A stretch of 64,000 nt of DNA from an uncultured delta proteobacterium (GCA_963731795.1 CAVSWU010000003.1:1030216-1094215), one strand, 5' to 3'; shown: positions 21,737 through 64,000, counted from the first letter of the stretch. The notes: generated from the letters alone by a model not told the origin. Translations and numbers: made by a program.

Positions 21737-22704
21737 GAGCCCGGCTTGCGGCCTTCTGGGCGCGGCTGCGCGTCCTGCTGCGTCCTCCGCGCACCCTGAA
21801 GGTGACGGGCACGGGACGCACGTACCTGGTGCTGACGTTCGGCGTGGGCCTGGGCGCGCTCAACACGGGCAACAACCTGCTCTACCTGGTGCTGGGCCTG
21901 CTGCTGGCCATGGTGGTGGTGTCCGGCGTGCTCTCCGAGCGCTGCCTGCGCCACCTGAGCGTGCGCCGCCTGGGCACCGAGTCCGCCTTTGCCGGCGAGC
22001 CCTTCGCGTACCGCTGGGCCATCACCCGCCGCCAGGGCCACGCCTTCGCCCTCACCCTCTCCGAGGTGGAGGTGCCGCTCAAGGGCGAGGGCTGCGTGGG
22101 CTATCTGCGCGCGGGAGTGGAGCACGTCGTCCGCGCGAACCTCACCGCGCCCAGGCGCGGCCCGATGAGGCTGAGCGGCGTCCGGGTGACCACCACGTGG
22201 CCCCTGGGCCTGTTCGCCAAGACGCGCGTCTTCCATGTCGACGGCACCCTGCTGGTCTTTCCGCGGCGCAGCTATGCGTGCCAGCTCCCGAATGATGCGC
22301 GGCTGGGGCCCATTGGAGACGCGAGCACCCCGCGCCGCAATGACGGCACGGGGGACGTGGCCGGCCTGCGCGAGCTGGGCCCCACCGAGGATGCCCGCCG
22401 CGTGCACTGGCGCAAGAGCGCCGCCGTCGGGAAGCTGATCAAGGTGGAGCGCGAGCGCGAGGAGCGCCGCACCTACGTCCTCACCGTGGACGCGGGCCTC
22501 ACAGGCGACACGCTGGAGCGGCGCTGCGAGGAGGTGGCGGCCCTCTCCCACGAGCTGCTCGAGGCGGGCAACGAGGTGGGCCTGGAGACGCCCGGAGAGC
22601 GCCTGCGCCCCGCTTCAGGCAGCGCCCAGGAGCGGCGCATCCTCCGCGCGTTGGCCTGGGTGGGGTTCGAGCAGCTCCGTCAGGACGGGGTGGAGGCGGC
22701 ATGA
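21733..22704 (+). CDS. DUF58 protein (MoxR partner, vWA-like)
   Basis: It has a GTG start overlapping the MoxR stop (GTGA), two N-terminal TM helices, and a DUF58-like body. Confidence 0.6.
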   Translation: MRARLAAFWARLRVLLRPPRTLKVTGTGRTYLVLTFGVGLGALNTGNNLLYLVLGLLLAMVVVSGVLSERCLRHLSVRRLGTESAFAGEPFAYRWAITRRQGHAFALTLSEVEVPLKGEGCVGYLRAGVEHVVRANLTAPRRGPMRLSGVRVTTTWPLGLFAKTRVFHVDGTLLVFPRRSYACQLPNDARLGPIGDASTPRRNDGTGDVAGLRELGPTEDARRVHWRKSAAVGKLIKVEREREERRTYVLTVDAGLTGDTLERRCEEVAALSHELLEAGNEVGLETPGERLRPASGSAQERRILRALAWVGFEQLRQDGVEAA

Positions 22705-24738: not shown

Positions 24739-25010
24739 GCCTCCCCGCTCCCTCTCCGAGGGATCGAACCGCGCCTCCTTCTCGGATGACACCGAACCAC
24801 CCCGTTACAGGGTTGGAAACCAGGGACACACGCACCATCTCATTGGCCCTGGGCTCGGAGGTGACTGGCAGACAGTCGCGAAACTTCTACAGAACGCGTG
24901 GACCGGGGTTTCCGGCAGCGGTCTGTAACCCTTTCCACCCGTGGGTCCCCTTTCCAGCGGGGACCTGACTCAACCCCCTGTCACTCCAGGGGATTTTCCG
25001 CGCAAGAGGC

Positions 25011-41151: not shown

Positions 41152-41305
41152 GAGGGTCAAGTCTACGGGGGGTTCCCCAAAGGCCGGTAGCAAAACAAGT
41201 GGGCCCGACGGAAGAAGGTACGCAGGGCATGCAAGGGAGTCTCCGGCCGGGAGCGTTGGGGTCCCCTGCTTTCCCGCCACCTCCGCTGCTGATACTGGGA
41301 GAATC

Positions 41306-42916
41306 ATGAAGGGCCTGAGCATTGGCAGCAGGTTGATCCTGTCGTTCGCTGTCCTCATCGTGCTGCTCGTCGGCGTAGGTTGGCTGAGCCTGAGCAGGAT
41401 GGCCGCGCTCGACGAGTCGCTCGAAGAGGTGGCGAGCAAGCGCTGGACCCAGGTGCGCCTCTCGCAGGACGCCATGCACCGGGCGGAAGAGAACAGCCGG
41501 CTCACCCTGGCGATGTTCCTCGTCACGGATCGCGCGGAGCTCGACCGGCTCCTGGCCCAGCAAGAAGAAAACAGGCGCACCATCAACGCGCTGATGAGCA
41601 GAATCGAGGGGGCCCTCGAGCATGCCAGGGGCAAGTCCCTCTTCGCCGACGTGAAGGCCCTGCGAGCCCGCTACGTGGACAGCTTCACGCGCGTCCGCAC
41701 CTTGCTGCAACAGGAGAAGCGGAGCGAGTCGATGGACCTGATGGTCCGAGAGGTGATCCCCAACATCGCGAACCTCGAGCGCGCGTGGTCCGAGTTCGTC
41801 GACTATCAGGGCGAGCTGCTGACCGAGGATGCCGTGCTGAGCACGGTCACGTATCAGCGTGCTCGCGCGCTGGTCCTGGCCATGATCGCCGCGGCGGTGG
41901 TGCTGGCGGCGCTGCTCGGCCTCGCCGTCACCCGCAGCATCACCGTGCCCATTGGCCAGGTGGTGGCGCTGACGGCCCGCATCGCCCAGGGCGACCTTCA
42001 GCAGAAGATCGAGATCACCCGGCACGACGAGACAGGCCAGCTCCAGGCGGCGGTGAAGGAGATGTCCGAGCGGCTGGCGGCGATCATCAGCCAGGTGCGC
42101 GCCGGGGCCACGGCGTTGAACTCCGCGTCAGCGCAGGTCTCGTCCACCGCCCAGCTCGTCGCCCAGGGCAGCAGCGAGCAGGCCGCTTCGGTGGAGGAGA
42201 CCACCGCCAGCCTCGAGGAGATGTCGGCCTCCATCAGCCTGAACGCCGAGAACAGCCGCCGGACCGAGCAGACGGCCCTCCAGGGCGCCCGGGACGCGGA
42301 GGCGAGCGGCAAGGCGGTGAGCGAGACCGTGACGGCCATGAGGGAGATCGTCGAGAAGATCTCGATCATCGAGGAGATCGCCTACCAGACCAACCTGCTC
42401 GCGCTGAACGCCGCGATCGAGGCGGCCCGCGCCAGCGAGCATGGCCGGGGCTTCGCGGTGGTGGCCACGGAGGTGCGCAAGCTCTCCGAGCGGAGCCAGC
42501 TCGCCTCCAAGGAGATCAGCGGGCTGGCGGGCTCGAGCGTCCCCGTGGCCGAGGACTCGGGCCGGCGGCTCACCGCGCTGGTCCCCTCGATCCGGGCCAC
42601 GGCGGAGCGAGTCCAGGAGGTGGCCATGGCCTCCCGGGAGCAGTCGGCCAAGGTGACGCAGATCGGCACGACCATGGGCCTGCTGAACCAGGTCACCCAG
42701 CGCAATGCCTCGGCCGCCGAGGAGCTGGCGGCCACGGCCGAGGAGCTGGCCGCGCAGGCGGACTCGCTGCAGCAGCTCATGTCCTACTTCTCCGTGGACG
42801 TGAGGGCCGAGCTTCTCCCTCCGCGCGCCCAGCCACGCCTGGGGCCTCCGGGCTCCCACCAGGGAGCAAACCGTCACAATCCGGCGGACTTGACCCCGGG
42901 CACCTTGGCGGTGTGA
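41306..42916 (+). CDS. methyl-accepting chemotaxis protein (4HB sensor - HAMP - MA domain), 536 aa, orphan
   Basis: It has two TM segments, a HAMP domain, and the highly conserved MA core [41 protein letters not shown]. Confidence 0.8.
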
Positions 42917-45270
42917 CCGTAGAGCAGCTGGTAGGTGTTGTACGAGCGCAGCACGCGCTTGATGTAGCCGCGTGTCTCGGCGATCGGCACCTCCTCCACC
43001 CACGCGTCCAGCGGCATGCCCTTGCGCTCGGCGCGCCAGCGCATGATCGCTCCGGAGCCCGCGTTGTAGCTGCCCACCGCGAACGGCGCGTTCCCGCCGA
43101 ACTGCTTGACGAGCTGGCCCAGGTAGTGCGCGCCCAGGCGGATGTTCATGTCCGGCTCCAGCAGGGACTCGACGCGGAAGCGCTTGATCTTGAGCTGCTG
43201 GGCCACCGACTTCGCGGTGAAGGGCATCAGCTGGGTGAGCCCCAGCGCGCCGGCCCAGGACAGGGCCTTGGGATCCAGCGCGCTCTCCTCGCGCATCAGC
43301 GCCTGCAGGAGATCCGGCTCCACTCCAGCCTCCTTGGTGTGCTTCTCGATCAGGTTCCGGTACGCGTTCGGATAGGCGATCTCCCACACCGGCCGCGTCT
43401 GCGGGGTGATGCGGCCGCTCAAGTCCCTGCGCAGCGACACGCGCGCCACCGCATGCGCGCCCCGCTCATCCCCCGCCATGGACAACAGGTGGACGATCAG
43501 CCGCGAGGGCTCGGCCGGCAGTCCATTGCGATTGACCGCCAGCAGCTCGGAGGACACCGCCTCCGGGAAGCCCAGGCGCAAGAGCTCCACGCCGGCCAGG
43601 AAGTGCGGATCCTTCTCCATGATGGGCCCGGTGTGCATGGGCCACGGGCTGGCGGACTCCGCGCTGAAGACCAGCTGCGGGGCGATGCGCGCCAGCCGCT
43701 CCTTGTCCACCTCGCCCAGCTGCGCGCGCGCCATCAGCCCGTAGTAGGTGGCCGGGTGATCCACCGCGAGCTTCTCGAAGAGCGCCACCGCTCCCTGCGT
43801 GTCACCGCGCTCCTGCAGCGTCCGCGCCCGCCAGTACCGCGCCCGCTCCACGTCATACGACTCGTCCGCATCGGCGAAGCGCTTCTCGATCTTGTCCAGG
43901 AGGGACAGCCCGCCGTCCGGCACCTTGGAGGTGCGAGCGATCCAGAAGGCCTTGAAGAGCGCCTCGCCCAGGAAGTCTCCCTGCGAGTAGTTCTTCTCCA
44001 GCTCCTCGAGCCGCGCCAGGGCCTGCTCCGGCTGGTCCGTCTTCACGTACAGGTCCGCCGCGTAGAAGAGCGCGTCGTCCGCGAAGGAGTGGCCGGGGAA
44101 CTCGTGGGCGAGCCGCTCGTACACCTGCGCCCCGCGCTTCATGTCCACGATGGAGGCCGACGAGCCCAGCACATACATGGCGCGCGGCAGCAGCTCCGCG
44201 TCCTGGCACTTCTCCACCACCGGTGAGAGCACGGCGATGGCCTTCGTGTGGTTGCGCTCCTTGCGCTGCCCCTTGCCGTAGGCGAAGTGCGCGCGGCACG
44301 CGAGCGGATCCGGCAGCTTCAGCGTGGGCAGCAGCGGCTCCAGCACCGCGAGCCCCTGCTTGTTGCGGTGCAGCTCGATCAGCTGCTCGGCGCGCGCCAC
44401 CTGAGCCTCCAGCGGCGGCTTGATGCCCCTGAGGCGCCGCTCCGCCTGCTTCGTCAGCGGCGAGAGCGGGTACAGCGACCACAGCCGCCACAGGGCCTCG
44501 CGCTCGCGCGGGCGATCCTTCTTCTCCGAGGCGATGTCCGCGACGGCGATGAGCGCCTCGGCCCCCACGTTGCGGCCGAACAGCGGCGCGGGCCGGTTCG
44601 CCAGGGGCGCGAGCGCGGCCATGGCCCCGTCGTAGTCCTTCTTCTTGCGCAGCACGCGCCCGAGCGCCAGGCGCGCGTCCACGTACAGCTTCGAGTCCTC
44701 CGACACGGCCGCGAACCTCTTCGCCGCCTCATCGAACTTGCCGAGATCCTCCAGCGCCATGCCCGCATGCGTGAGGCAGCGATCCCTCAGCGCCGGGTAG
44801 TCCTCCGCCAGGGAGGCCATCTCCACGGCCGCGCGGGTATCGTCCCCCGCACGCACGGCGCTCAGGGCGCGCAGGTAGCGCACCGGCAGCGAGTCTCCCT
44901 CGTTCGCCAGCAGCTCCCGGGACTTGAGGTACAGGCCCCGATCGAAGGCCGCCTTGGCCTCCTTCTTCTTGCCCTCGGCGAAGTAAGGCATCAGCTCCGC
45001 CAGCCCGTAGGCCTTGCCCTTCGGCACCTCGACTTCAACCTTCTTGGGAGGCTCCGCCACCACGGGCATCGGGAAGGCGGGGTTGAAGATCTCCACGTAC
45101 TCCGGCGGCAGCGGAGCCTTCTCCGCGTCCGGGGGCGGAGTCAGCTGCGCCTCGGTAGGAGCGCCGTCGGTCCGGGGTTGGGGCGCACTCGTGGCCTCGG
45201 TGGCCACCGGCTGCGCGGAGGCCAGTGACGCAAAGGAGACGACGGCAATCAGCGAAAGGGCGGATTTCAT
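42874..45270 (-). CDS. soluble lytic murein transglycosylase (Slt70-like: superhelical TPR-like domain + SLT domain), 798 aa
   Basis: It has a signal peptide and the C-terminal catalytic motif [22 protein letters not shown] ... YNAGSGAI. Confidence 0.75.
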
Positions 45271-45378: not shown

Positions 45379-47619
45379 ATGGACATCCGAACCCAGAGCG
45401 CGCTCCTCGCGTCCCTCCTCGGCCTGGCGCTCGGGCTGTCGATGCTGCTGCGGCCAGGCAGGCCGCGGGTGGTGACGCTGTATTCCGTCTTCGCCCTGAC
45501 TGTGGCGGGGTACTACCTCGCGCTCTTCTTCGCCGGCATCTTCCCCGAGCCGGGATGGGTGTCCAGAATCGCCGTGGGCGCCACCATCCTGCTGGCCTCC
45601 TTCGTTCCCGGCACGGCCGTCTCCTTCTTCCTGGAGTTCCTGGGTGTCAGCAAGGGCACCCACATGCTCGGCCGGCGGCTGGCCCTGCTCTCGAGCGTGT
45701 TCGGTGTGGTGGTGGCGCGTCACCCCGCTGGCGCAGACGAACTGGGCGCGGCTGGCCACGGGCGGGTGGGTGCTCGGTCACCCTGCTCACCTCGGTGAGC
45801 CTGCTGCTGAACCGGGTGCGCACCCAGGAGTCGCGCATTGAACGGTTGCGGCTCATGTACCTGGCCATCGGGGCCGGGGCCTCCGTCCTGCTGACGGCGC
45901 TGGAGCTGGTGGGCCGGCGCTATGACATCCCCCTGCCTCCGCTGGGGCCCATCTTCTCCACGCTCTACCTCTTCTTCCTGGCCCAGACGCTGCTGCGGCT
46001 GCGGCTGATGGACCTGCACGAGCTGCTGGGGAAGATCGCCTCGCAGACGGTGCTGGCCTTCATCCTCGCCGCCGTCTTCACGGTGCTCACCGCCTGGGTG
46101 AAGGAGAAGACGGGCCTGTTCGTCTTCAACACGGTGGTGGCCGCCTTCGTCATCATCATCCTCATGGAGCCGCTGAGGGTGAAGGTGGAGGAGCAGGTGG
46201 TGGCCATCTTCTTCCGCGAGCGCTTCGAGCTGCTGCGCGCGCTGGGAGCGCTCCGGGCGCGCATGGCCACCGTCATCGACATCTCCGAGGTGACGCGGAT
46301 GCTGCTGGACGCGCTCCACGAGACGGGCCGCATCACCCACGCCTCCGTGTACATGCTGGCGGAGGCTCGGCCGGGCTACCGGCTGCTGGACTCGCGCGGC
46401 CCGCCGCCCGAGGGCTTCCTGGATACGGCCGCGGCGCGCGGGCTGCTCCTGGCGGCCGCCTCGGGACAGAAGGCCGTGCTGCTGGAGAACGTGGAGAACC
46501 GGCTCACGGACGCTGCGGGTGCAGGCCACCGAGGGCAAGCGCTTCCGCGACGAGATCAAGCGCCTGCAGGACACCCGCGCCTCGCTGCTGCAGATGAAGT
46601 CCGGCATCTCCGTGCCCCTGGTGGGCAATGATCGGGTGATCGGCTTCCTGAACCTGTGGGACGAGCGCGTGCCAGAGGCCTACGCCTCGGATGAGATCGC
46701 CCTCATCCTCTCGGTGGCCGAGCGCGTGGCCACGGTGCTGGAGAACTCGAAGCTGTACGAGAAGATCCGCGAGCGCGATCGCCTGGCGGCGCTGGGTGAG
46801 ATGGCGGCGGGCCTGGCGCATGAGATCCGCAACCCGCTGGGCGCCATCAAGGGCGCGGCGCAGTGCCTGGATCCCAAGCGGCTACCGGGCGAGGACGGCG
46901 AGTTCTTGGGCGTCATCGTCGAGGAGGTGAACCGGCTCAACGGTGTGGTGACGGCGTTCCTGGACTACGCGCGCCCGCTCAAGCAGAGCTTCGGGCCCAC
47001 CGATCTCAACGAGGTGGTGGCGCGCACCATGCGCCTCATCCAGAACGACGTGCCCAAGCAGATCGAGTTGGCGCTGCAGTTGGATCTGACGGTGCCGCGC
47101 GTGGACGCGGACGCCGAGCAGCTCAAGCAGGTGCTCATCAACCTGGTGCAGAACGCGGTGCAGGCCACCGGCGAGGCCCCCGGCCGCATCACCGTGGGCA
47201 CGGTGAAGCCGGACCGCTTCAGCGACTTCCGGGGCAACATGAACGAGTTCGTCGAGGTCCAAGTCTCCGACACGGGGCCCGGCATCCCCCTGGACCAGCA
47301 ACAGCACATCTTCGTGCCCTTCTTCACCACCAAACAGAAGGGCACGGGGCTGGGGTTGGCCATCTGTCAGCGCATTGTCAAGAACCATGGCGGCAGCATC
47401 TCCGTCCACAGCAAGCCCGGCGAGGGGTGCTCCTTTGTCATCCGCCTGCCTGCGCTGCCGGCGGAGCCACAGCCGGTAGAGGCCTCCCCTACGGAGGGTA
47501 CGCCCTTGCCCTCGCCCCGGCCTCCGCTCCCTCCTCCAATCGAGGAACCCCGGGAGAGCCCGTCTTCCAAATCCTCAGAGTCCAAGCCCAAGCGAGAAAA
47601 GAAGCGCAAGGCGAGCTGA
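45379..47619 (+). CDS. membrane sensor histidine kinase (multi-TM - GAF - HisKA - HATPase); about 3 frameshifts (about 45715, 45780, 46515)
   Basis: Segments lie in ORFs 45379..45798, 45225..46631 and 46519..47619. The H-box is GLAHEIRNPLGAI, the N-box is LINLVQNAVQA, and G1/G2 are DTGPGIP...GTGLGLAI. There is no receiver domain. Confidence 0.65.
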
Positions 47620-47725
47620 AAGAAGCGCCAGGCAGGCTCATCCAGCTTGATACAGTGGTCGCCGTGAGTCGTAGGCGAGCGGCCCACCCCTGGGGTAGAA
47701 AAGCACCTGGAGTTCGGAGAACCTC

Positions 47726-48763
47726 ATGAGCAAGCCCATCCAAGTCCTCCTCACCGACGATTCCCCCACGATGCTGCAGGTCCTCACGCGGCTGCTGTCA
47801 GCCCAGCCGGACGTGACCGTGGTGGGAACCGCTCGCGACGGCGAGGAGGCCGTCGTGCTGGCGCGCTCCCTGAAGCCGGATGTCATCACCCTGGACGTGC
47901 AGATGCCGGGGATGGATGGCCTGGGCGCCACCGAGCGCATCATGGCGGAGACGCCCTGCCGCATCCTCATGGTCTCGGGCGCGCCGGACACGGACCTGTC
48001 CTTCCGCGCGCTGCAGGCCGGAGCGCTGGAGGTGATCTCCAAGCCGCAGGGCTCGCCGGAGGACGTGGCGCGCTTCGGGGTGCGGCTGCTGTCCGCCATC
48101 CGACTGTTGGCCGAGGTGAAGCTCGTCACCCAGCGCCGCGAGGGCCACGCCACCGCGCCCGCGCTGCCATCGAACGCGCGCGTGGCGGGCTTCGCGCTGT
48201 CCTCGTCCATCGGCGGGCCTACGGCGCTGGCCTCGCTGCTGTGGCTGTTGCCGCGCAGCCTGCCCTTCCCGCTCTTCATCGCCCAGCACATCACCCCGGG
48301 TTTCACCGTGGGCCTGCACCGGTGGCTCTCGTCGCTGTCTCCGCTGCCGGTGGAGATCGCCCGCGCCTCCGAGCAGCCCCGGGCCGGCACCGTCTATCTC
48401 GCGCCGGACGGCCACCACCTCCGGGTGGGCATGCAGGGCGAGCTCGTCATCGAGAAGGCCTCGGGCAGCACCTTCCCCTCGGGAGATCTGCTGCTGGCGT
48501 CGCTGTCGCGCGCCTTTGGCTCCCACGCCGCCGGCGCGGTGCTCAGCGGCATGGGCGAGGAGGGCGCGGTGGGCCTGATGGCCATCAAGCGCGCCGGCGG
48601 GCTCACCTTCGCGCAGGATCCCGAGACGTGCCTGGTGGCGGGGATGCCGGAGGCGGCGCTGCGCAACAAGGCCACCGAGCACCGCGTCTCGCCCGAGGCC
48701 CTGGCCAACATCCTCCGTTCACTCGAGGGCATGCCCCCGCCGGGCACTCCCCCAGGCATCTGA
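47726..48763 (+). CDS. CheB-type response regulator (REC + methylesterase/deamidase domain), copy 1, intact
   Basis: The REC domain has LLTDDSPTML ... DVITLDVQMPGMDG. The CheB catalytic domain has SSSIGGP...FIAQH...GMGEEGAVGL. Confidence 0.75.
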   Translation: MSKPIQVLLTDDSPTMLQVLTRLLSAQPDVTVVGTARDGEEAVVLARSLKPDVITLDVQMPGMDGLGATERIMAETPCRILMVSGAPDTDLSFRALQAGALEVISKPQGSPEDVARFGVRLLSAIRLLAEVKLVTQRREGHATAPALPSNARVAGFALSSSIGGPTALASLLWLLPRSLPFPLFIAQHITPGFTVGLHRWLSSLSPLPVEIARASEQPRAGTVYLAPDGHHLRVGMQGELVIEKASGSTFPSGDLLLASLSRAFGSHAAGAVLSGMGEEGAVGLMAIKRAGGLTFAQDPETCLVAGMPEAALRNKATEHRVSPEALANILRSLEGMPPPGTPPGI

Positions 48764-48842
48764 TCCTGCTCTGGCCGGGAGAATCGTCAGGGCTGTATGG
48801 CACGGTTCCCCGAGCACTCTCGCCCCCCTCTCCGAGGCGCAC

Positions 48843-49895
48843 ATGAGCTCCACCATCCGAGTCCTCATCGCGGACGACTCGCCCACCATGCTGAAGATGT
48901 ACTCGGCACTGCTGTCCTCGGCGCCGGACATCCAGGTCATTGGTACGGCTAAGGATGGAGAGGAGGCCGTAGAGCTGGCGCGCACGCTGAAGCCGGATGT
49001 GATCACCCTGGACGTGCGCATGCCGCGCATGGACGGCATCGAGGCCAGCTCGCGCATCATGAATGAGGCCCCGAGCCGCATCCTGGTCATCTCGGGGGCG
49101 GTGGACGCGGAGATGTCCTTCAAGGCGCTGCAGGCCGGAGCGCTGGAGGTCATGCCCAAGCCGCGCCCCGGCCTGGAGGGCCTGGCCAACTTCGGCGTGA
49201 AGCTGATCCACATCATCCGGACGATGGCCGAGTTGCCGCTGGCCGAGCGCCGGCCGTCTCCCCCTCCCGTCCAGGCTCCAGTGCCCACGGTGCCCGCGCA
49301 GCAGGCCCGGGTGAATGGCTTCGGGCTGGTGGCCTCCACGGGCGGTCCGCCCGCGCTCTGCCTGCTGCTGTCGCTGCTGCCGCCGAAGCTCCCCTACCCC
49401 ATCTTCATCGCCCAGCACGTCTCGGACGGCTTCACCGCGGGGCTGTGCCAGTGGCTGGGCGCCGCCTCCACGCTGCAGCTCGAGGTGGCGCAGACGGGCA
49501 CCCGGCCCCAGGCGGGCTATGTCTACCTGCCACCGGACGGGCACCAGCTGCAGGTGATGCTGACGGGAGAGCTGCTCGTGGAGCCCATCCCGGCCGCCAA
49601 GGCCGCGCTCGGGGATACGCTGCTGGCCTCGCTGGCGCTCGCCTACGGCAACCGGGCCGGGGGCGCGGTGCTCACGGGCATGGGCTCGGATGGAGCCTCG
49701 GGGCTGCTGGCCATCCGTCGCGCGGGAGGGATCACCTTCGCGCAGAGCCCGGAGAGCTGTGTCGTCCCCGGCATGCCCGAGGCGGCGCTGCGCAACGGCG
49801 CCACCGACACCGTCCTGTCGCTGGAGGGCCTGGCCTCGGCCATGCGCGCCCTCACCGGCTCGGCCCCGCCGACGACCCCGCCCGTTCGCAACTGA
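48843..49895 (+). CDS. CheB-type response regulator, copy 2, intact
   Basis: It has the same architecture as copy 1 and is very similar to copy 3. Confidence 0.75.
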   Translation: MSSTIRVLIADDSPTMLKMYSALLSSAPDIQVIGTAKDGEEAVELARTLKPDVITLDVRMPRMDGIEASSRIMNEAPSRILVISGAVDAEMSFKALQAGALEVMPKPRPGLEGLANFGVKLIHIIRTMAELPLAERRPSPPPVQAPVPTVPAQQARVNGFGLVASTGGPPALCLLLSLLPPKLPYPIFIAQHVSDGFTAGLCQWLGAASTLQLEVAQTGTRPQAGYVYLPPDGHQLQVMLTGELLVEPIPAAKAALGDTLLASLALAYGNRAGGAVLTGMGSDGASGLLAIRRAGGITFAQSPESCVVPGMPEAALRNGATDTVLSLEGLASAMRALTGSAPPTTPPVRN

Positions 49896-49994
49896 GCGCC
49901 TCCCCGTTTCAGGCAGGATCGTCTCGGACGTAACAGTCCGCCTCGAGCCCCGCGACTGCGCACGCTACCCAAAGCGTAGGATGCAAGCCACACT

Positions 49995-50009
49995 GCTGGT
50001 AGAATCTAC
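49995..50009. promoter_or_regulatory. perfect palindrome TGGTAGA-a-TCTACCA about 55 nt upstream of the third cheB-like gene
   Basis: This is a 15-bp dyad in the 167-nt spacer, and a candidate operator. Confidence 0.3.
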
Positions 50010-50062
50010 CAAGTAGGCTTTTCGTCCTCCCTGCTGCGCGCCCGACAGCCTCCGAGGTGCTC

Positions 50063-51107
50063 ATGAACAAGCCGATTCAGGTCCTCCTTGCGGATGACTC
50101 GCCCACCATTCTGCGGATGTTCACCGGATTGCTCGCCGCCGCCCCGGACATCCGGGTCATCGGCACAGCGAATGATGGAAAGGAAGCGGTGGCGATGACC
50201 CAGTCGCTCCGCCCGGACATCGTCACCCTGGATGTGCGGATGCCCGCGGATGGACGGCATCGAGGCCAGCTCGCGCATCATGAGCGAGGCCCCGAGCCGC
50301 ATCCTGGTCATCTCGGGGGCGATGGACGCGGAGCTGTCCTTCAAGGCGCTGCAGGCCGGAGCGCTGGAGGTGATGGCCAAGCCGACTCCCGGCAAGGAGG
50401 GCGGCCTGACGGGCTTCGGCAACCAGCTCATCCACACCATCCGGGCGATGGCGGAGATCCCCCTGGCTACACGCAAGCTGGTGCTCGGCCACCCGGCGCC
50501 GCCGCCGCTGCTGCGCGGAGGGCGGGTGAACGGCTTCGGGCTGGTGGCCGCCACGGGAGGCCCGCCCGCGCTGGCCATGTTGCTGTCGCTGCTGCCTCCG
50601 AGCCTTCCGTACCCGCTCTTCATCGCCCAGCACGTGTCGGTGGGCTTCACCTCGGGCCTGCGCCAGTGGCTGAGCGCGGCCTCGCCGCTGCAGCTGGAGG
50701 TGGCGCGCACGGGCACCCGGCCCCAGCCGGGCCACGTCTACCTGGCTCCGGACGGGCACTTGATGCAGGTGCTCATGACGGGCGAGCTGCTCGTGGAGTC
50801 GGTCCACGGCCGCCACGTGACGGCGGGAGACACGCTGCTGACCTCGCTGGCGCGCGCCCATGGAAACCGGGCTGGGGGCGCGGTGCTCACGGGCATGGGC
50901 ACGGACGGAGCCATGGGGCTGCTGGCCATCCGTCGCGCGGGAGGCCTGACGCTCGTGCAGAGCCCCGAGAGCTGTGTCGTCTCGAGCATGCCCGAGTCGG
51001 CGCTGCGCATGAGGGCCGCGGAGACGTCGCTCACCATCGATGCGCTGGCCTCGGCCATGCGTGCGCTCTCGGGCGCGCTGCCCACGGCCCTGGGCATGCG
51101 GAGCTGA
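50063..51107 (+). CDS. CheB-type response regulator, copy 3; one frameshift near 50245
   Basis: The N-terminus is [20 protein letters not shown]...LDVRMP. An indel follows, and the rest lies in ORF 50232..51107 ([25 protein letters not shown]...). The nucleotide sequence around the shift is nearly identical to copy 2. Confidence 0.65.
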
Positions 51108-51276: not shown

Positions 51277-52596
51277 ATGCAGATCGGCAAATACCAGCTC
51301 ATCCGCAAGCTCGCGACCGGGGGAATGGCCGAGGTCTTCCTCGCCAAGGTCGCTGGCCCCATGGACTTCGAGAAGGAAGTGGTGGTCAAGCGCATCCTGC
51401 CGCACCTCGCGGGGGACGAGGACTTCGTGGAGATGTTCTTCACCGAGGCCAAGCTGGCCGCGCGGCTCAACCACCCCAACATCGTCCAGATCTTCGACTT
51501 CGGTCAGGCCGACGGCACGTACTACCTGGCCATGGAGTACATCGACGGCCTGAACCTGCGCGGGCTCTTGAAGCGGGTGAACGCGCTCGAGATGGCGCTG
51601 TCCCCGGTGCTCTGCTCCCGGCTGATCGCGACGGCCTGCGAGGGGCTGGCCTTCGCCCATGAGCTCCAGGATCCGGACACGGGCCAGCTCCTGGGGCTGA
51701 TCCACCGGGACGTGAGCCTCGACAACATCCTGCTGTCCCGGCAGGGCGCGGTGAAGATCGTGGACTTCGGCATCGCCAAGGCGGCCAACCAGAGCCACCA
51801 CACGTTGACCGGAGTCATCAAGGGCAAGCTCTCGTACATGGCACCCGAGCAGATCCGCAGCAATCCGCTGGATCTGCGGGTGGACGTGTACGCGCTGGGG
51901 ATCGTCTTCTACGAGCTGCTCACCGGCCGCAAGCCATTCAACGCGACCACCGAAGCGAGCATGGCGCAGGCCATCCTCTACGAGCCGCCCGTGCCCGCGG
52001 TGGAGCGCCGGCCGGATCTGCCCGAGGCTGTGTCGAAGATCCTCGAGCGTGCGCTCGCCAAGGAGCGCGAGCAGCGCTACCCGGACTGCCGCGCGTTCCA
52101 GTCGGAGTTGGAGGACTTCATCCTCTCCACGGGGAAGAAGGTGGGCGTGCACCGGATCGCGCAGTTCGTGTCGAAGATCATCGACAGCGCGCCCACGGAG
52201 CCCCCGGCCCCACCGAGCAGCGCGCCGCAAGCCTCACCGCCTCCGCCGCCGCGCATCGCCCTGGTATCACCTCAACGCTTCTCGCCGCCCCCACCTCCGC
52301 CTGCGCGCCCCTTTCCACCGGTTCCGCCGGGGACCGCCGTCACGAAGGCGGAGACGCCTCCGAAGCTCCGGCTCGTCCAGGCCCCGCCCGCGAAGCCGAG
52401 CCCACCTTCGGATGAGCCAAAGCCCCTGCCAGCCCGAGCACTCTTCAAGCCGCACCCGCGAGCCGGGCTGCTGTGGGCCCTCGCCGCCGTGGGGATGCTC
52501 ATGGCGGGAGGAGGTATCGTGGCCTGGCGTATGGGCAACAAGCAGAAGCCCCCGGAGCACACGAACGCGCCCCGGGTGGAACGCAAGCAGGACTGA
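51277..52596 (+). CDS. Ser/Thr protein kinase (Hanks-type) with a Pro-rich linker and a C-terminal TM segment
   Basis: It has the VAIK-like VVKRIL, the catalytic loop [14 protein letters not shown], and the APE-like SYMAPEQ. Confidence 0.8.
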
Positions 52597-52602
52597 GCCC
52601 TC

Positions 52603-54575
52603 TCAGCCCAGGGACGCCGAGGCCGCGGCCAGCTTCTCCTGCGCGGCCTCCCACTCCAGGTACAGCGACTCCAGCTCCTCCTTGCCGGCCCGGTGCGTGT
52701 CCATCAGCGGCTTGGCCCGAGCGAAGTCGTTGTAGAGCTCCGGATCCGCGAGCTGCGCCTCGCGCTCCTTCTGCTCGGCCTCCAGCTTGGAGATCCGCTC
52801 TTCAATCCGCGCGATCTCCTTCTTGATCGGCCCCTCCACCACGCTGCGGCGCTGGCGGGCCTCGGCCTCCAGCCGCTTGCGCTCCTTCTCCGTCACCGGG
52901 CCCGGGGCAAGCTTGTCGTTGCCCTTGCCCTTCTCCCCCACCGCCGCCGCCTCTGCCGCCAGGCGGAGCTGCTCCTGGTGGTACAGGTACTCGTCCAGGT
53001 TGCCCGGGTGCGGCACCACCTTGCCGTCCACCACGTCCCACACCTGGTTGGCCAGCCGGTTCACGAACGCGCGGTTGTGCGAGACGAACAGCAGCGTCCC
53101 GCCGTACTTCGCCAGCGCGTCGATCAGCATCTCCGTCGAGTCCAGATCCAGGTGGTTGGTGGGCTCGTCCATCAGCAGGAAGTTGGAGGGCCGCAGCAGC
53201 AGCTTCGCCAGCGCCACGCGCGCCCGCTCGCCGCCGGACAGCACCCCGATGGGCTTGTCCACGTCATCGCCCGAGAACAGGAACGCGCCCAGCACTCCGC
53301 GCACGTAGCTCTCTGGCTTGTCCGCCGCCAGCGGCCGCACCTCCTCCAGGATGGTGTTGCGCTTGTCCAGCGTGTCCGCGTGGTGCTGCGCGTAGTAGCC
53401 CATCACCACGTTGTGCCCCAGCTTCACCTCTCCGCCGTCCGGCGCCAGCTCTCCCGCCAGGATCTTCAGCAGCGTCGTCTTGCCCGCGCCGTTGGCCCCA
53501 ATCACCGCGATGCGCTGGCCCCGCTCCACCCGCGCGTCCAGCCCCGAGTACACCACGTGGTTGCCGTAGCTCTTCCGGATCCCCTCCAGCATCGCCACGT
53601 CCCGGCCCGAGCGCTCCACCTCCGGGAAGCGGAAGTGCACCGTGTCGCGCTCCTCCAGCAGGTGCACCTCCTCCAGCTTCTCCAGCATCTTCGCGCGGCT
53701 CTGCGCCTGCCGGGCCTTGGTCGCCTTGGCGCCGAACCGATCGATGAAGGACTGCAGCTCGGCGCGGCGGGCCTCCACCTTCGCGGCCCGGGCGCGCAGC
53801 TGCTCCATCTCCTCGGCCCGCAGGCGCTTGTACGCGTCGTAGTTGCCCACGTACGAGCGCAGCCCCTCGATCTCCAGCGAGAGCACCCGCCCCACCTGCC
53901 GGTTGAGGAAGTCCCGATCGTGCGAGATCAGGATCAGCGCCTTGTTCGAGCGGCGCAGGAACTCGTCGAACCACGTGAGCGTCGGCACGTCCAGGTGGTT
54001 GGTGGGCTCGTCCAGCAGCAGCAGATCCGGATCCTGCAGGAGCAGGCCCGCGAGCGCCGCGCGCATCCGCCACCCGCCCGACAGCGCCCCCGTGGGCTTG
54101 GCCAGGTCCGCGTCCCGGAAGCCCAGGCCCTTGAGGATCCGCTCGGCGTGGTGCCGGCCGTAGTGGTCCTCGAAGTGGTCCAGCTCCGTGTGCAGGTCCG
54201 CCAGCTCCTGGGACAGCTCGAGCTGGGTCGGCCTCGTCCGGGGCCTGGGCGAGCGCCTCCTCGGTGCTCTTCAGGCGGGACTCCAGCGAGTCGCGGCCGG
54301 GCACGGTGCTCATCACCGCCTCCACCACCGTCCCCGAGGGCAGGCCGGCCAGCTCCTGCGGCAGGTAGCCCACCCGGGCCCCCCGAGCGAAGGAGATCGT
54401 CCCCGAGTCCGCGTGCTGCACTCCGGCGATGATCTTCATCAACGAGCTCTTGCCCGTCCCGTTGGCACCCACCAGGCCCACGCGATCCCGGGGGCCGAGG
54501 GTGAAGCTGGCGTCGTCGAAGAGGACCTTCTTGCCGTAGGCAGAGGCAGATATCCTGGGCGATGAGGAGGCTCAT
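52603..54575 (-). CDS. ABC-F family ATPase (two ABC domains, no TM; EttA/Uup-like); at least 3 frameshifts
   Basis: Domain 2 and the linker are intact in ORF 52603..54066 (Walker A GANGAGKTTLL, signature LSGGERARVALA). Domain 1 is split between ORF 53264..54481 (GLVGANGTGKSSL) and other frames. The N-terminus MSLLIAQDI is at 54575 in a further frame. Confidence 0.65.
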
Positions 54576-58856: not shown

Positions 58857-59258
58857 TCACGGCTGCCGGAAGGCCTCGCTCACGGCGGCAGTGTCCCCAA
58901 AGACACGGACGGACACAGCCTTCCCGCCACGCAACGTCCAGACGTGCACCCAGGCGTTCTCATAGGTGCGACCGGTCGGCTTTGCTCGCACCTTCTCCCA
59001 ACCGAGCACCACCACCTGCTCGCCCTGGGCGATGAACTCCCGGGGCTCGAATGTCAGCGACTCGCTCGAGCCCTTGATGGCGCTCACGAGCCGCCGGATG
59101 CCCTCATGCCCCTTGAACTCGCCAGCCAGGGGCACATGGGCCGGGTATGGGTTGGCCCAGACGATGTCCGTCGAGAACCCGGCCAGCACGGCCTCGAGGC
59201 TCCCGCTGTCATAGGCCGCGTAGACGTCCTTCACCGCTCTCAGGTTGGACTCGATCAT
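58857..59258 (-). CDS. SnoaL-like / NTF2-fold protein (133 aa)
   Basis: It has the size and pattern typical of polyketide-cyclase-like NTF2 proteins. Its start is 3 nt after the stop of the upstream LLM gene. Confidence 0.5.
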   Translation of the reverse strand: MIESNLRAVKDVYAAYDSGSLEAVLAGFSTDIVWANPYPAHVPLAGEFKGHEGIRRLVSAIKGSSESLTFEPREFIAQGEQVVVLGWEKVRAKPTGRTYENAWVHVWTLRGGKAVSVRVFGDTAAVSEAFRQP

Positions 59259-59260
59259 GC

Positions 59261-60310
59261 TCAGCCCGCGGCGACACGGCGCTCCGTAGCAGGTACCTGG
59301 GTGCTCGGGGACAGGCGCACCGAGGCCTGCTTCAACGCCAGGTCGATGTGGTGGAACTCCTCTTCGTGCGGAGGAACATCGAGGATGAGGGTGTCGATCC
59401 CCCGCTGCACCAGTGAGTTGATGAGCGCGGCGACCTGGGCGTGATCGCCCACGAAGTACGGGCAGTCGGCCTTGAAGTTGCGGAACGGCTCCAGCCAGAA
59501 GCCTTGCCGCGCCGCGGCGGCTCCCTCCGCGACCATCTTCATCCGCCACTTCCACTCGGCGTCGGTGTTGCGCATGGAGAGCTCGAGCACGCTCTGCCCC
59601 AGAGGATCCTCGGGGAACAGGGCGCGAGCGGCCTCCCAGGCCTCGGCCTCCCGCGGACGGGTGATGATGCCGAAGTGGACGCCACGCACGCCCGCGCGCA
59701 GCCCCTGCTCCAGCGTGGCCGGCAGCATCTGCATGCTCACCGCGCCGAGCGCCCCCGCCGTCCGCAGGGCCGCCTCCGACTGGCCAGCCAGCAGCAGGCC
59801 CGGCTGGAGCGCCTGGGGAGTCCTCGGCAGGAGCTGCAGGTTGGACACGCGGTAGTGCTTCCCCTCGTACGTGACGGAAGGCTCGGCGAGCAACCGCTTC
59901 ATCACCTCGGCGTACTCGCGCAGCCGATCGTACCGCTCGTCGTGCGGCAGCCGATCGTCCATGGACTGCTGGTAGCTGAGCGCCGCGCCCGTGACGAGGT
60001 TCACGTACGTCCGGCGCCCGTAGAGGTGGGCGAACGAGGAGATGAACTTCGCTGCCGTGAACGGGTGCATGTAGATGGGGTTGATGGCCACCAGCGGCGA
60101 GAGCTGCTTCGTCTCGGCCATCACCCGCTGCGCCACCACCCAGGGCTCGATGATGACATCGTTGCCCGTGAAGATGAGCAGGCCGGTGTAGCCGTAGCGG
60201 TCGCTCAGCCGCATGACGGTCTCGATGTTCTTCCAGTACAGCGATTCGTCCGGGGTGCGAGGGCTGACCGTGAAGAGCTCCACTGCACCGTGAGCCAGTT
60301 CGAGTTTCAT
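59261..60310 (-). CDS. LLM-class (luciferase-like) flavin-dependent oxidoreductase (349 aa)
   Basis: It has a TIM-barrel LLM pattern and a strong SD (AGGAGG) 6 nt upstream. Its ATG overlaps the FMO stop. Confidence 0.6.
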   Translation of the reverse strand: MKLELAHGAVELFTVSPRTPDESLYWKNIETVMRLSDRYGYTGLLIFTGNDVIIEPWVVAQRVMAETKQLSPLVAINPIYMHPFTAAKFISSFAHLYGRRTYVNLVTGAALSYQQSMDDRLPHDERYDRLREYAEVMKRLLAEPSVTYEGKHYRVSNLQLLPRTPQALQPGLLLAGQSEAALRTAGALGAVSMQMLPATLEQGLRAGVRGVHFGIITRPREAEAWEAARALFPEDPLGQSVLELSMRNTDAEWKWRMKMVAEGAAAARQGFWLEPFRNFKADCPYFVGDHAQVAALINSLVQRGIDTLILDVPPHEEEFHHIDLALKQASVRLSPSTQVPATERRVAAG

Positions 60311-61389
60311 GCTGCCTCCTGCTGAGGGTGTGAGGGGCCCACCGGAATGGCGCGGCCCGAGCGCTCGGCGATATGGGAGGCGAGGAAGGCGGCATCCCGC
60401 CCCACGCCTCCGAGAAGAGAAGAGTTGGCCCGGTAGAGCCACTTGAGGCCGAGGAAGTAGAGCCCCGGGCGCGCGGTGACGCCCCGTGAATGAACGGGCC
60501 TGCCGCCCGCGTCGAGCACGGGCACCTCCAGCCAGGAGTAGTCCGGGCGGAAGCCGGTGGCCCAGACGATGGCGTCCACCTCCAGCGCCTGCCCATCCAC
60601 GAAGGTGACGCGGTGCCCCTCCACGTCCTTCACCCGAGGCCGCAGCACCAGGCCGTGCATGCGCGCCAGCTCCTCGGGCCCCGGGCCGATGATGCCATCC
60701 GGCCCCTGGCTCATCCGCCGGCCCAGCCAGGAGTCCACGGTGACCTCCGTGAGCCGCAGCAGGTGGGCCCACCAGAAGTAGTCCCGCCCCAGCATGCGCC
60801 GCGGGCTGGCCGCCGTCCTCCCGAGCGCGAGGTGCACCTCGTGGCTGGCCGCCAGCTCCCGGGCGATGCCCGCCCCGGAGTTGCCGCAGCCGACCACGAG
60901 CACCCTCCCCCGCGGGAGCTGCGACGGGTTGCGGTACAGGCTGCTGTGGAGCTGAACCAGCTGGGGGCTGGCCCGCTCCAGGCTCACGGGCAGTAGCGGC
61001 CGCGTGAAGGGCCCCGTCGCGCAGACGACGTTGCGCGCCTCGAAGACGGTGTCCGCCGTACGCACCACGTAGGCGTCCCCCTCCGCGCGCACGGAGCTCA
61101 CCCGCGTCCCCAGCCGCAGGGGCAGCTCGAAGGCCCTGGCATAGCTCTCGAGGTAGTCCGCCACCTCGTCCTTGCTGGGGAAGGTCCACGGCTCCCTCGG
61201 GAACGGCATCCCAGGGAGATCGTTGTACGGGCACGGCGTGATGAGCCGGAGCGAATCCCACCGGGATCGCCAGGAATGGCCCACCTGCTCCGCCGCCTCC
61301 AGGATGAGGAAGCGTCGGCCCTGCCGAGCGAGCTGGTAGCCCAGGGCGAGGCCGGCCTGACCTCCGCCGATGATGAGGACGTCGTGCAT
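60307..61389 (-). CDS. FAD/NAD(P)-binding flavin-containing monooxygenase-like oxidoreductase (361 aa)
   Basis: It has VLIIGGGQAGLALG (FAD GxGxxG) and a second VLVVGCGNSGAGIA (NADPH) motif. Confidence 0.65.
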   Translation of the reverse strand: MHDVLIIGGGQAGLALGYQLARQGRRFLILEAAEQVGHSWRSRWDSLRLITPCPYNDLPGMPFPREPWTFPSKDEVADYLESYARAFELPLRLGTRVSSVRAEGDAYVVRTADTVFEARNVVCATGPFTRPLLPVSLERASPQLVQLHSSLYRNPSQLPRGRVLVVGCGNSGAGIARELAASHEVHLALGRTAASPRRMLGRDYFWWAHLLRLTEVTVDSWLGRRMSQGPDGIIGPGPEELARMHGLVLRPRVKDVEGHRVTFVDGQALEVDAIVWATGFRPDYSWLEVPVLDAGGRPVHSRGVTARPGLYFLGLKWLYRANSSLLGGVGRDAAFLASHIAERSGRAIPVGPSHPQQEAA

Positions 61390-61400
61390 GATCCTCTCCG

Positions 61401-64000
61401 TTACCGAGGCTCGGCGCGCGCCACGGACATCCGCAGCGTCGCCGCCAGGGAATCCACGCCCGACGAGGCGAGGAGCGAGTAGTGGTCTCCCGCGAGGGTG
61501 CGCGTCTCCAGGCGGCCCACCCAGGGACGCCAGCCCGCGTCCTCCGCGCGCGCCAGGGGATCGTCCGCCGCCCGCAGGGACACCACGGGGACGTCCACCT
61601 TCCGAGGCGTCCATTGATCCATGGCCCGCGTGTGGGCCTCGAAGACCCCCAGCAGGCGCTGGAGCTGCGGCAGGTCCACATCTCGCGCCACCAGGTCGGC
61701 TTCGTGCGCCTGCTCCAGCGCGAAGGCCAGCCGCGCCTCGGCCTTCAGCGACCGAAGCTGCGCCACTGGCAGGGTGAAGGGCTTGCCGCCCGTGCTGGCG
61801 ATGTCCTGGATGAACCAGGCCACGCGCTCCGCGTCATCCACCCGAGCCAGCTTCCCGGGCGCTGGGCTGTCGATGAGCGCCACCAGCGCCACCTCCTGCC
61901 CGAGTTCACGCAGCCGACGCGCCATCTCCAGCGCGACCAGTCCGCCCATGGACCAACCGCCCAACAGGTACGGCCCCGAGGGCTGCACCGAGCGCACGGC
62001 CTCGACGTACTCGTGTGCCATGGCGACCAGGTCCTCCCGAGGCTCCTGATCCCCGAGGAAGCCCCGCGCCTGCAGTCCATAGACGGGGCGCTCCCGGCCG
62101 AACCGCTGCGCCAGCTCGCGGTAGCACAGGACATTGCCGCCCACCGGGTGCACGAGGAAGAGCGGCCTGCCCTGGCCCTGCGAGTGCAGGAGCACCAGCG
62201 GCGACCACGCGGCGGCGGGCGCACTGCCGCGCACCAGGGACGCGAGGTGCGCGAGCGTGGGCTCCTGCACCAGCGCCGTGAGTGGGAGCTCCCGCCCGAA
62301 CTGCTGGCGGATGCGCCCCATCACCCGCACCAGCGCGAAGGAGTGCCCGCCCAGCTCGAAGAAGTTGTCATGCCGGCCCACCTGGGAGACGCCCAGCACC
62401 TCTTCCCAGATACGGGCCAGCGCCTGCTCCAGCTCGTCCCTCGGGGCCTCGAGGCCACGCTCGCGCCGGGCGCCTGGCTCCTCCGGGGCCGGGAGCGCCT
62501 TGCGGTCCACCTTGCCATTGGCCGTCAGGGGCAGCCGCTCCAGCGGGAGGAAGAGCGAAGGCACCATGTAGCGCGGCAGCTTCGTCTCCAGGTACGCGCG
62601 CAGCTGCGCGAGGGTGTCGGCGGGATCGCCGTCAATGACGACATAGGCCACCAGGCGCTTGTCCCCCAGGCGCTCCCCGTGGGCCGTCACCACCGCCGCG
62701 CGCACGGCCGGGTGCCGCTCCAGGACGGTCTCGATCTCGCCCAGCTCGATGCGGTAGCCCTGCACCTTCACCTGGAAGTCCGCGCGGCCCTGGAACTCGA
62801 TCGAGCCGTCTGGCAGGGAGCGCCCCAGATCTCCCGTCCGGTAGAGGCGCTCCCCCGTCACAGGGTGGCGGACGAAGCGCGCCTCCGTCTTCGCCGAGTC
62901 CTTCCAGTAGCCCTTCGCCAGGCCCACGCCGGCGATGAACAGCTCGCCGGTGACCCAGGTGGGGCGCGGCGCCAACGCCTCATCGAGCACATGGAAGCGC
63001 TGGTTCTTCAGGGGCTTGCCGTAGGGGATGCTCTGCCAGCCGGGATCCACCCGGTCGATGGGGTGGAGGATGGACCAGATGGAGGCCTCGGTCGCCCCGC
63101 CCAGGCTCATCACCTGGATGCCGGGGCGCAGGGCTCGGATGCGATCCGGCAAGGCCACGGGGATCCAATCGCCGCTGAGCATCACCGTGCGCAGCGCCAG
63201 CTCCCCGAGCCACTCCTTCTGTCCCTCCGCGTATTCCACGAGGAGCTGCATGAGGGCCGGCACCGAGTTCCACAGGGTGACCTTCTCCATCCTGAGCAGC
63301 TTCAGCCAGTGGGCCGGATCCTTGGCGGCCCCGGGCGCGGGCAGGACGAGGGCGCCGCCCGCGGCGAGCATGCCGAAGAGATCGTAGACGGACAGATCGA
63401 AGGTGAGCGCCGAGAGCGCGAGCACCCGATCCGAGGGCCCCACGCCGAACCGCTCGTTGAGATCCACGAGGGTGTTGGCCGCGCCGCGATGGTCGATCAT
63501 CACGCCCTTGGGCTCACCCGTGGAGCCCGAGGTGAAGATGACGTAGGCCAGATCCTCCGGCCGCTGGACGGAGCGGAGGCACGCGTCGCTCTCCCCCTCC
63601 AAGGTCTTCTCGGAGACGGCGATCCGCTGGATGCCCTCGGGCCAGGGGATCCGCGCCTCCAGCCAGGGCTGGGTGAGGACGATGCGGACCTCGCCCTGCC
63701 GCAGCAGGTGGTGGATGCGCTCCGTCGGCCACTCCGGATCAATCGGCAGGTAGGCAGCACCCGCGCCGAGCACGCCGAGCGCGGCCACCACCTGCTCCCA
63801 GCCCTTCTCCATGACGATGGCCACCAGGGTGTTGGGGACCGCGCCGAGCGCGCGGAGCCGGTGGGCCAGCTGGTGGGCCCGTCGCTGCACGGTGCCGTGG
63901 CTGAACGTGCCACGCGGCTCGATGACGGCCGGGTGATCCGGCCGGGCCTCCGCCTGCGCGGCGACGAGCTCGTGGAGGAGCACCTGGGGAATGGGAGCCT
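61401..64000 (-). CDS. terminal NRPS module: adenylation - PCP - thioesterase (C-terminal 860+ aa; the gene continues past the right edge)
   Basis: The A-domain cores are LPIDPEWP (A2), YVIFTSGSTGEPKGV (A3), SGDW..., GELFIAGVGLAKGY (A5), YRTGDL (A7), KVQGYRIELGEIE (A8) and LPLTANGKVDRKAL (A10). The PCP motif is FFELGGHSFAL and the TE motif is GGWSMGG. Confidence 0.85.
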   Translation of the reverse strand, partial: APIPQVLLHELVAAQAEARPDHPAVIEPRGTFSHGTVQRRAHQLAHRLRALGAVPNTLVAIVMEKGWEQVVAALGVLGAGAAYLPIDPEWPTERIHHLLRQGEVRIVLTQPWLEARIPWPEGIQRIAVSEKTLEGESDACLRSVQRPEDLAYVIFTSGSTGEPKGVMIDHRGAANTLVDLNERFGVGPSDRVLALSALTFDLSVYDLFGMLAAGGALVLPAPGAAKDPAHWLKLLRMEKVTLWNSVPALMQLLVEYAEGQKEWLGELALRTVMLSGDWIPVALPDRIRALRPGIQVMSLGGATEASIWSILHPIDRVDPGWQSIPYGKPLKNQRFHVLDEALAPRPTWVTGELFIAGVGLAKGYWKDSAKTEARFVRHPVTGERLYRTGDLGRSLPDGSIEFQGRADFQVKVQGYRIELGEIETVLERHPAVRAAVVTAHGERLGDKRLVAYVVIDGDPADTLAQLRAYLETKLPRYMVPSLFLPLERLPLTANGKVDRKALPAPEEPGARRERGLEAPRDELEQALARIWEEVLGVSQVGRHDNFFELGGHSFALVRVMGRIRQQFGRELPLTALVQEPTLAHLASLVRGSAPAAAWSPLVLLHSQGQGRPLFLVHPVGGNVLCYRELAQRFGRERPVYGLQARGFLGDQEPREDLVAMAHEYVEAVRSVQPSGPYLLGGWSMGGLVALEMARRLRELGQEVALVALIDSPAPGKLARVDDAERVAWFIQDIASTGGKPFTLPVAQLRSLKAEARLAFALEQAHEADLVARDVDLPQLQRLLGVFEAHTRAMDQWTPRKVDVPVVSLRAADDPLARAEDAGWRPWVGRLETRTLAGDHYSLLASSGVDSLAATLRMSVARAEPR

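Follow-up and report, generated by a model that had tools for sequence, protein, structure and literature searches.

Canonical CheB proteins, such as those of Salmonella (1A2O) and Pectobacterium (6YMZ), join a receiver (REC) domain to a methylesterase domain. Departures from this textbook form are known in Myxococcus xanthus, which has orphan or REC-less CheBs and encodes one of them, CheBa (MXAN_0714), outside any che operon (PMC3945109); CheBa and FrzG both have no receiver domain. In some Myxococcales, among them M. xanthus and Stigmatella aurantiaca, a complete chemosensory module, Che3, comprising CheA, CheW, CheB, CheR and a methyl-accepting chemotaxis protein (MCP), lies inserted beside a conserved NtrB-type kinase, and for this CrdS/CrdA system coupling through an NtrC-type regulator was shown by experiment (PMC3147164). 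Receivers that serve chiefly to accept or relay phosphoryl groups have been characterized in the che clusters of Sinorhizobium meliloti (CheY1) and Rhodobacter sphaeroides (CheY6, CheB2), and in Rhodobacter, kinases can exchange phosphate through CheB receiver domains (PMC2924250). Here we describe three CheB-type genes, cheB1, cheB2 and cheB3, that lie in tandem 3′ of a membrane histidine kinase gene in an uncultured delta proteobacterium. The stretch of DNA analyzed, hereafter the window, spans 64 kb at about 69% G+C (assembly GCA_963731795.1, CAVSWU010000003.1:1030216-1094215). The trio resembles canonical CheBs in its architecture, its receiver residues and its His190, but it lies outside a che cluster, comprises three tandem copies, and has Glu286 in CheB1 and Ala164 in CheB3. 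Unlike CheBa and FrzG, with which it shares the departure from the textbook form, it keeps the receiver and degrades catalytic residues instead. As in the CrdS/CrdA-Che3 case, chemosensory genes have been inserted by a conserved NtrB-type kinase; here, however, they are CheB genes only, and the arrangement is known from sequence. On the comparative evidence set out below, the trio is an insertion confined to one lineage, the Hyalangium clade, next to an old, unpaired kinase.

Gene models were derived from the phase of third-position GC (GC3) and from Pfam matches (Table 1). All three copies combine an N-terminal receiver with a C-terminal CheB_methylest domain. The Pfam E values are 1e-47 to 1e-48 for cheB1, for cheB2 and for both halves of 50057-51107, the region of cheB3, and CheB1 aligns with 1A2O and 6YMZ over approximately residues 4-317 of 345 (33% identity, E about 1e-47). 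A hydropathy scan places about eight hydrophobic segments within the first 270 amino acids of the kinase; GAF, HisKA and HATPase_c domains follow, and its catalytic core is nearest to the AtoS/ZraS/NtrB models, with the H-box AHEIRNPL. Pfam finds no REC domain in it. Neither CheA, CheW, CheR nor any other Che domain was detected by Pfam in any GC3-supported open reading frame (ORF) or frame-corrected stretch of the whole window. Over the 45 kb upstream and the 13 kb downstream of the locus a Che set is absent, and the trio is not placed within a chemosensory cluster with CheA, CheW, CheR or an MCP, the one MCP nearby being of another type. The preliminary description of this DNA, which reported three full-length tandem CheB-type genes behind a receiver-less membrane kinase with a GAF domain and no CheA, CheW or CheR in the window, is thus borne out in gene content and coordinates, and a neighbouring Che set, which it had regarded as fatal to its interpretation if found just outside the window, is not seen over these distances.

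The conservation of functional residues, mapped in Salmonella CheB numbering, differs between the two domains. In the receiver, every copy and every full-length orthologue retains D10, D11, D56, S83 and K107. In the methylesterase domain, the triad Ser164-His190-Asp286 is present in CheB2 only. CheB1 has Ser-His-Glu (D286E), and its Thr165 is replaced by Ile; CheB3 has Ala-His-Asp (Ser164 to Ala). The PSxD motif reads ALGD in CheB2 and TAGD in CheB3; the FIAQH and GMGxxG motifs are retained, as is His190. The preliminary description had proposed, as a check, to confirm the catalytic triad in each copy; this holds for CheB2 and fails for CheB1 and CheB3, although the loss of the triad from all three, the other outcome that would have told against its interpretation, is not observed.

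The same residue states recur in related sequences. All 14 B1-type proteins have S-H-E and all 57 cluster-type proteins have S-H-D; the 28 B2-type proteins divide into 22 with S-H-D, five with A-H-D and one with A-S-E, and the 22 B3-type proteins into 18 with A-H-D and four with S-H-D. An exhaustive search against representatives at 50% identity gave S-H-D for 148 of the 150 best matches, the other two being the B3 representative of the trio lineage and one truncated fragment. Ratios of nonsynonymous to synonymous substitution rates (dN/dS), which are rough values because they are pairwise Nei-Gojobori estimates under strong codon bias, fall between 0.09 and 0.38, with REC lower than the catalytic domain in 10 of 12 comparisons. 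The range is 0.09-0.22 for CheB1 and 0.25-0.31 for CheB3, on which purifying selection is therefore still acting. CheB3 is the fastest-evolving of the three, at 81% identity to its nearest orthologue versus 93-94% for CheB1 and CheB2. The NCBIfam models NF009206 and NF001965 score the trio at 245-274 bits, against cut-offs of 293 and 342; as a test of CheB membership these cut-offs were set aside, since genuine Che5-cluster CheBs, which score 275-293 bits, miss them too, and no discrimination results.

Pairwise identities within the trio are 55% for CheB1-CheB2, 55% for CheB1-CheB3 and 69% for CheB2-CheB3, and the copies are therefore old paralogues rather than recent duplicates. In a neighbour-joining tree, CheB1 and the pair CheB2-CheB3 group together, as the sister of Che5-type cluster CheBs. 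The latter, exemplified by proteins from H. minutum (P0086) and Myxococcus sp. Y35 (P0068), are the nearest relatives outside Hyalangium and Stigmatella (48-52% identity) and the nearest canonical ones. They are encoded in complete clusters with the order CheY, CheY-CheW, CheR, CheW, CheA-REC, CheB and MCP, from which we infer that they correspond to the M. xanthus Che5 set, including CheB5 (MXAN_6028), listed in PMC3945109. They differ from the trio in this position between CheA and an MCP, together with CheR, CheW and CheY, in the uniform S-H-D triad, in the intact PSxD motif, and in the residues of the receiver alpha-1 helix.

Scanning species-representative genomes with the kinase C-terminus yielded 80 loci in Myxococcaceae and Archangiaceae, of which the nearest are those of Hyalangium (88-89% identity). 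In both families, tblastn of the window proteins against the 80 loci shows a conserved block consisting of ParA-like, HNH, SelA, SLT and kinase genes, followed by ABC-F, Ser/Thr kinase, metallopeptidase-like and ATP-grasp genes. The kinase and the divergent SLT lytic transglycosylase are kept across these loci, the SLT gene adjoining the kinase in essentially every locus with upstream sequence, and this pairing is the conserved one. No response-regulator gene adjoins the kinase in 74 of the 80 loci in a receiver-domain search, nor is any of its conserved neighbours a response regulator in the tblastn comparison. We regard the kinase, on sequence grounds, as an old and widely conserved orphan. 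It evolves at a dN/dS of about 0.2, and its DHp helices and H-box are essentially invariant among 69 full-length orthologues, with or without CheBs.

The CheB genes, in turn, have a narrow distribution. Among the 62 kinase loci that could be evaluated, i.e., those in which sequence extends 3.5 kb or more past the kinase, CheB genes follow the kinase in six, all Hyalangium-like, besides the window itself, and in 56 there are none. Several genomes have ABC-F or the next conserved gene directly 3′ of the kinase, and other genera hold unrelated genes at the insertion site; given this variable content, the region is a variable insertion spot. In S. aurantiaca DW4/3-1 (L081, CP002271, 4539946-4560983), the order SelA-SLT-kinase-CheB1 gives way to a zinc-ribbon gene and a fragment of a DDE transposase, at which point synteny with Hyalangium ends, and neither CheB2 nor CheB3 is present at the locus. 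Because the split between CheB1 and CheB2-CheB3 is much older than that between the two genera, this suggests that Stigmatella lost CheB2 and CheB3 by rearrangement rather than that they were simply never present. S. aurantiaca, in which gene deletions have been made before, carries this simpler kinase-CheB1 version of the locus. A CheB1 homologue with 72% identity also occurs alone, beside IleRS and LspA and away from this kinase, on a metagenomic contig. Were kinase and CheB a cognate pair, the pairing should be kept wherever the kinase occurs, and it is not (56 of 62 loci without CheB, 74 of 80 without a receiver neighbour). Conserved synteny in relatives, which had been put forward as a check, is accordingly found for kinase and cheB1 in Hyalangium and Stigmatella and is absent from most kinase loci.

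The spacer between kinase and cheB1 contains the element GAGTCGTAGGCGAG-N12-GGGGTAGAA, which is present in this spacer in all eight cheB1 loci, including that of Stigmatella. Its 14-nt core is exact in seven fetched loci, all of which carry cheB1, while L001 differs by one base; no match to the core was found in kinase loci without cheB1. At an unrelated locus, the lone cheB1-like gene is preceded by a near-identical motif (L084, 9955-9990). The element thus accompanies cheB1 even where the surroundings differ, and cheB1 would therefore carry its own control region. The element looks like a promoter or operator. It was left as promoter-like, as neither the sigma-54 nor the sigma-70 consensus fits cleanly, and a scan of the region for promoter and terminator consensus sequences gave nothing above the shuffled expectation.

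To the reading that we favor we would give an even chance of being correct. It holds that the trio is an intact, lineage-specific orphan CheB array descended from a cluster CheB, that its phosphodonor is a CheA, and that CheB3 is a non-catalytic competitor or phosphate acceptor. The trio was inserted, with its own putative upstream control element, into a variable spot 3′ of an NtrB/AtoS-type membrane kinase. All three receivers appear fully competent, and phosphorylation would thus be central to the function of the trio. CheB2, with Ser-His-Asp, and probably CheB1, with Ser-His-Glu, would still hydrolyze methyl-glutamate or glutamine on chemoreceptors. CheB3, with Ala-His-Asp, could not use the standard mechanism; most likely it would be phosphorylated without being catalytic, and would adjust the active copies as a competitor or phosphate acceptor. 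The likeliest phosphodonor would be a CheA from one of the chemosensory systems of the genome, not the adjacent kinase. Sequence comparison shows the gene content, the intact genes of relatives, ancestry, insertion history, residue states and purifying selection, while enzymatic activity, a sink or competitor role and the phosphodonor are proposals. The residue states would fit a division in which catalysis is kept in one copy, probably kept through a Glu variant in the second, and not needed in the third. The preliminary description also raised a phosphate-sink or other non-canonical role, which gains support in that the receivers are strictly kept while two of the three copies have lost Ser or Asp; the role itself is a proposal. 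Whereas the sink receivers of S. meliloti and R. sphaeroides are characterized members of che clusters, that of CheB3 is proposed from residue conservation.

Several points weigh against this reading. Within Hyalangium and Stigmatella, kinase and cheB1 are always adjacent and on the same strand, in all eight clade members examined; kinase stop and cheB1 start are 106 bp apart here and 67-89 bp apart in relatives. Between the kinase and the cheB genes no terminator is predicted, and such adjacency is what a cognate pair classically looks like. In all three receivers, the alpha-1 helix is unlike that of Che5-type CheBs, which fits a changed phosphodonor. Activity of the Ser-His-Glu triad in CheB1 is an assumption, the triad census counts related sequences and not independent events, and the neighbour-joining tree is without support values. 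Of the source genome, moreover, the analysis covered the 64-kb window, in which no CheA was found.

The adjacency, the short same-strand gap in eight of eight clade members, the lack of a predicted terminator and the diverged alpha-1 residues would all follow if, in Hyalangium and Stigmatella, the GAF kinase had captured the CheBs as its response regulators, in which case a membrane or GAF signal, and not CheA, would govern methylesterase activity and couple the envelope to chemoreceptor adaptation. Since 74 of 80 loci show no partner beside the kinase, it might have been free to take up a new one, and there is a precedent in the CrdS/CrdA-Che3 system, in which a chemosensory module inserted by an NtrB-type kinase became coupled to it (PMC3147164). 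We nonetheless consider capture possible rather than probable. The specificity surface of the kinase DHp is the same in genomes with and without CheBs and gives no sign of re-wiring, although the receivers could still have adapted. The alpha-1 helix of CheB1 (LQVLTR) is unlike those of CheB2 (LKMYSA) and CheB3 (LRMFTG), so that a single kinase would hardly fit all three equally well, while cheB1 has its own upstream element, is also found without this kinase beside it, and lies at a site that holds unrelated genes in other genera. Comparison thus lends little support to the proposal in the preliminary description that the CheBs are outputs of the adjacent kinase: the adjacency within the clade is in its favor, whereas a conserved orphan kinase with an unchanged DHp, a variable spot and a separate cheB1 element speak against it. 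The trio might also consist of phosphorylatable pseudo-CheBs that compete for receptor sites or drain phosphate, perhaps captured by an envelope kinase paired with a lytic transglycosylase, a combination that we rate as rather improbable; catalysis would then have been abandoned in CheB3 throughout the clade and in CheB2 in some species, and, if true, the capture would link cell-wall status to chemosensory memory without CheA.

A further possibility is that the methylesterase fold has been re-purposed, either to bind or modify a substrate other than chemoreceptors or as a pure receiver buffer array. The degenerate triad in two of three copies, unmatched among the 148 other nearest representatives, and the altered PSxD of CheB2 and CheB3 would be in line with such a change, as would the lack of CheR, CheW and CheA in the surrounding 64 kb and the purifying selection on catalytic domains despite loss of the nucleophile. 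This explanation appears improbable, however, when set against the retention of His190, FIAQH and GMGxxG, the alignment to CheB structures over approximately residues 4-317, and the fully canonical CheB2 of this genome; myxobacteria, furthermore, hold many orphan MCPs and CheRs as possible substrates or partners (PMC3945109). The degenerate-triad paralogues are modestly novel within a known protein family. The question to which they relate is how bacteria with multiple chemosensory systems assign adaptation enzymes to receptor arrays and keep them apart, and the locus offers a natural case in which CheB paralogues have left the cluster and multiplied, with the receiver constrained and the nucleophile or acid repeatedly lost or altered. 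If the inactive copies compete or accept phosphate, they would add a new regulatory layer to receptor methylation; if the neighbouring kinase feeds the trio, there would be a CheA-independent input into adaptation.

The copy-3 frameshift noted in the preliminary description is indeed present in the window sequence. Compared with four intact orthologues, cheB3 carries one extra base at 50246, directly 3′ of the phospho-acceptor motif TLDVRMP, and its true start is the ATG at 50063. DNA alignment reveals three more one-base insertions, previously unremarked, in the kinase gene (45718, ~45775 and ~46510); their net effect is +3, so that the gene is split across three frames while its N- and C-terminal parts stay in register. 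In the six closest loci the kinase is a single ORF of 740-755 amino acids and all three CheBs are intact. That the locus is decaying, with genuine frameshifts that make pseudogenes of the kinase and CheB3 in this strain, would account for four uncompensated single-base insertions within 5.7 kb and for the rapid evolution of CheB3 (81% versus 93-94%), yet we hold it to be very improbable. Apart from the insertions, kinase and CheB3 show no excess of amino-acid change, and with dN/dS at 0.18-0.31 the purifying selection on them is ordinary; the shifted frames keep a GC3 close to 0.9. One-base shifts also split two unrelated genes: in a TgpA-like protein (22344-24965, plus strand), TgpA_N and DUF4129 share a frame that differs from that of the transglutaminase core, and in the ABC-F ATPase (52606-54520, minus strand) the Walker A segment is out of frame with the rest. 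Identical copies of CheB1, CheB2 and the MCP are recorded from one 4.25-Mb contig only, a length that fits long-read assembly. Because relatives are intact, unrelated genes are hit alike, and selection and GC3 are normal, the frameshifts are most likely errors of assembly or sequencing and not marks of pseudogenes. This points to indel errors being general in the assembly, in which case the frameshift that first drew attention would be one among many. The TPR proteins at 773-5676 (minus strand) are probably split by a single-base frameshift as well.

Table 1. Positions of the kinase, the CheB trio, the cheB1 upstream element and adjoining genes in the window
Feature	Position	Strand	Basis or location
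Membrane histidine kinase	45379-47619	+	GC3 frame plot, Pfam on raw and repaired protein
Element GAGTCGTAGGCGAG-N12-GGGGTAGAA	47666-47701	+	25-60 nt 5′ of the cheB1 start codon, kinase-cheB1 spacer
CheB1, Response_reg and CheB_methylest, 345 aa	47726-48763	+	Pfam, alignment to 1A2O/6YMZ
CheB2, Response_reg and CheB_methylest, 350 aa	48843-49895	+	Pfam, residue mapping
CheB3, Response_reg and CheB_methylest, 347 aa after base removal	50063-51107	+	Pfam on two halves
MCP (4HB_MCP-HAMP-MCPsignal)	41306-42916	+	Pfam
TPR and SLT lytic transglycosylase, divergent from kinase	42874-45270	-	Pfam
Ser/Thr protein kinase, 3′ of CheB3	51290-52596	+	Pfam, synteny

The MCP gene lies beyond the lytic transglycosylase gene, as reported previously. 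It is a private insertion of this genome (window 41153-42880), the 1.7 kb being replaced by about 120 bp in L001, L004, L005 and L006, and it is absent from every trio-bearing relative examined and also from Stigmatella. The protein is without a C-terminal pentapeptide and is 28% identical to the Che5-type cluster MCP. Its nearest homologues, at 81-86% identity, are orphan MCPs in a few metagenome-assembled genomes of Myxococcaceae, and the next tier, at about 50-60%, is mostly from Anaeromyxobacteraceae, which hints at horizontal acquisition. A link between MCP and trio was considered and rejected, since the MCP is missing in the trio relatives, shares only 28% identity with the Che5-type MCP, and has its close relatives as orphans elsewhere; the MCP is evidence neither for nor against such a link. 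The Ser/Thr kinase downstream was likewise discarded as a partner of the trio, as it is shared with H. versicolor (L006) only and is not part of a conserved unit.

Other features of the window were recorded in passing. The gene at 37338-39233 occurs in Hyalangium-like loci and not in Stigmatella, and is ambiguous in its coding strand, with long ORFs open on both strands and no Pfam match; its GC3 phase changes near 37660, a point at which each of the four relatives is off by a net one base. A possible further frameshift near 37640, net +1 in all four comparisons, was not counted, because the coding strand is ambiguous and the shifted frame contains stops. A protein of about 800 amino acids encoded at 30857-33253 (minus strand) is a homologue of the eukaryotic major vault protein (MVP), with Vault, Vault_2, Vault_3 and Vault_4 repeats and an MVP shoulder domain. 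Finally, a small biosynthetic-looking group of genes at 58860-63998 (minus strand), which continues past the end of the window, encodes SnoaL-like, luciferase-like monooxygenase and flavin monooxygenase proteins and a non-ribosomal peptide synthetase (NRPS)-like adenylation-carrier-thioesterase protein.

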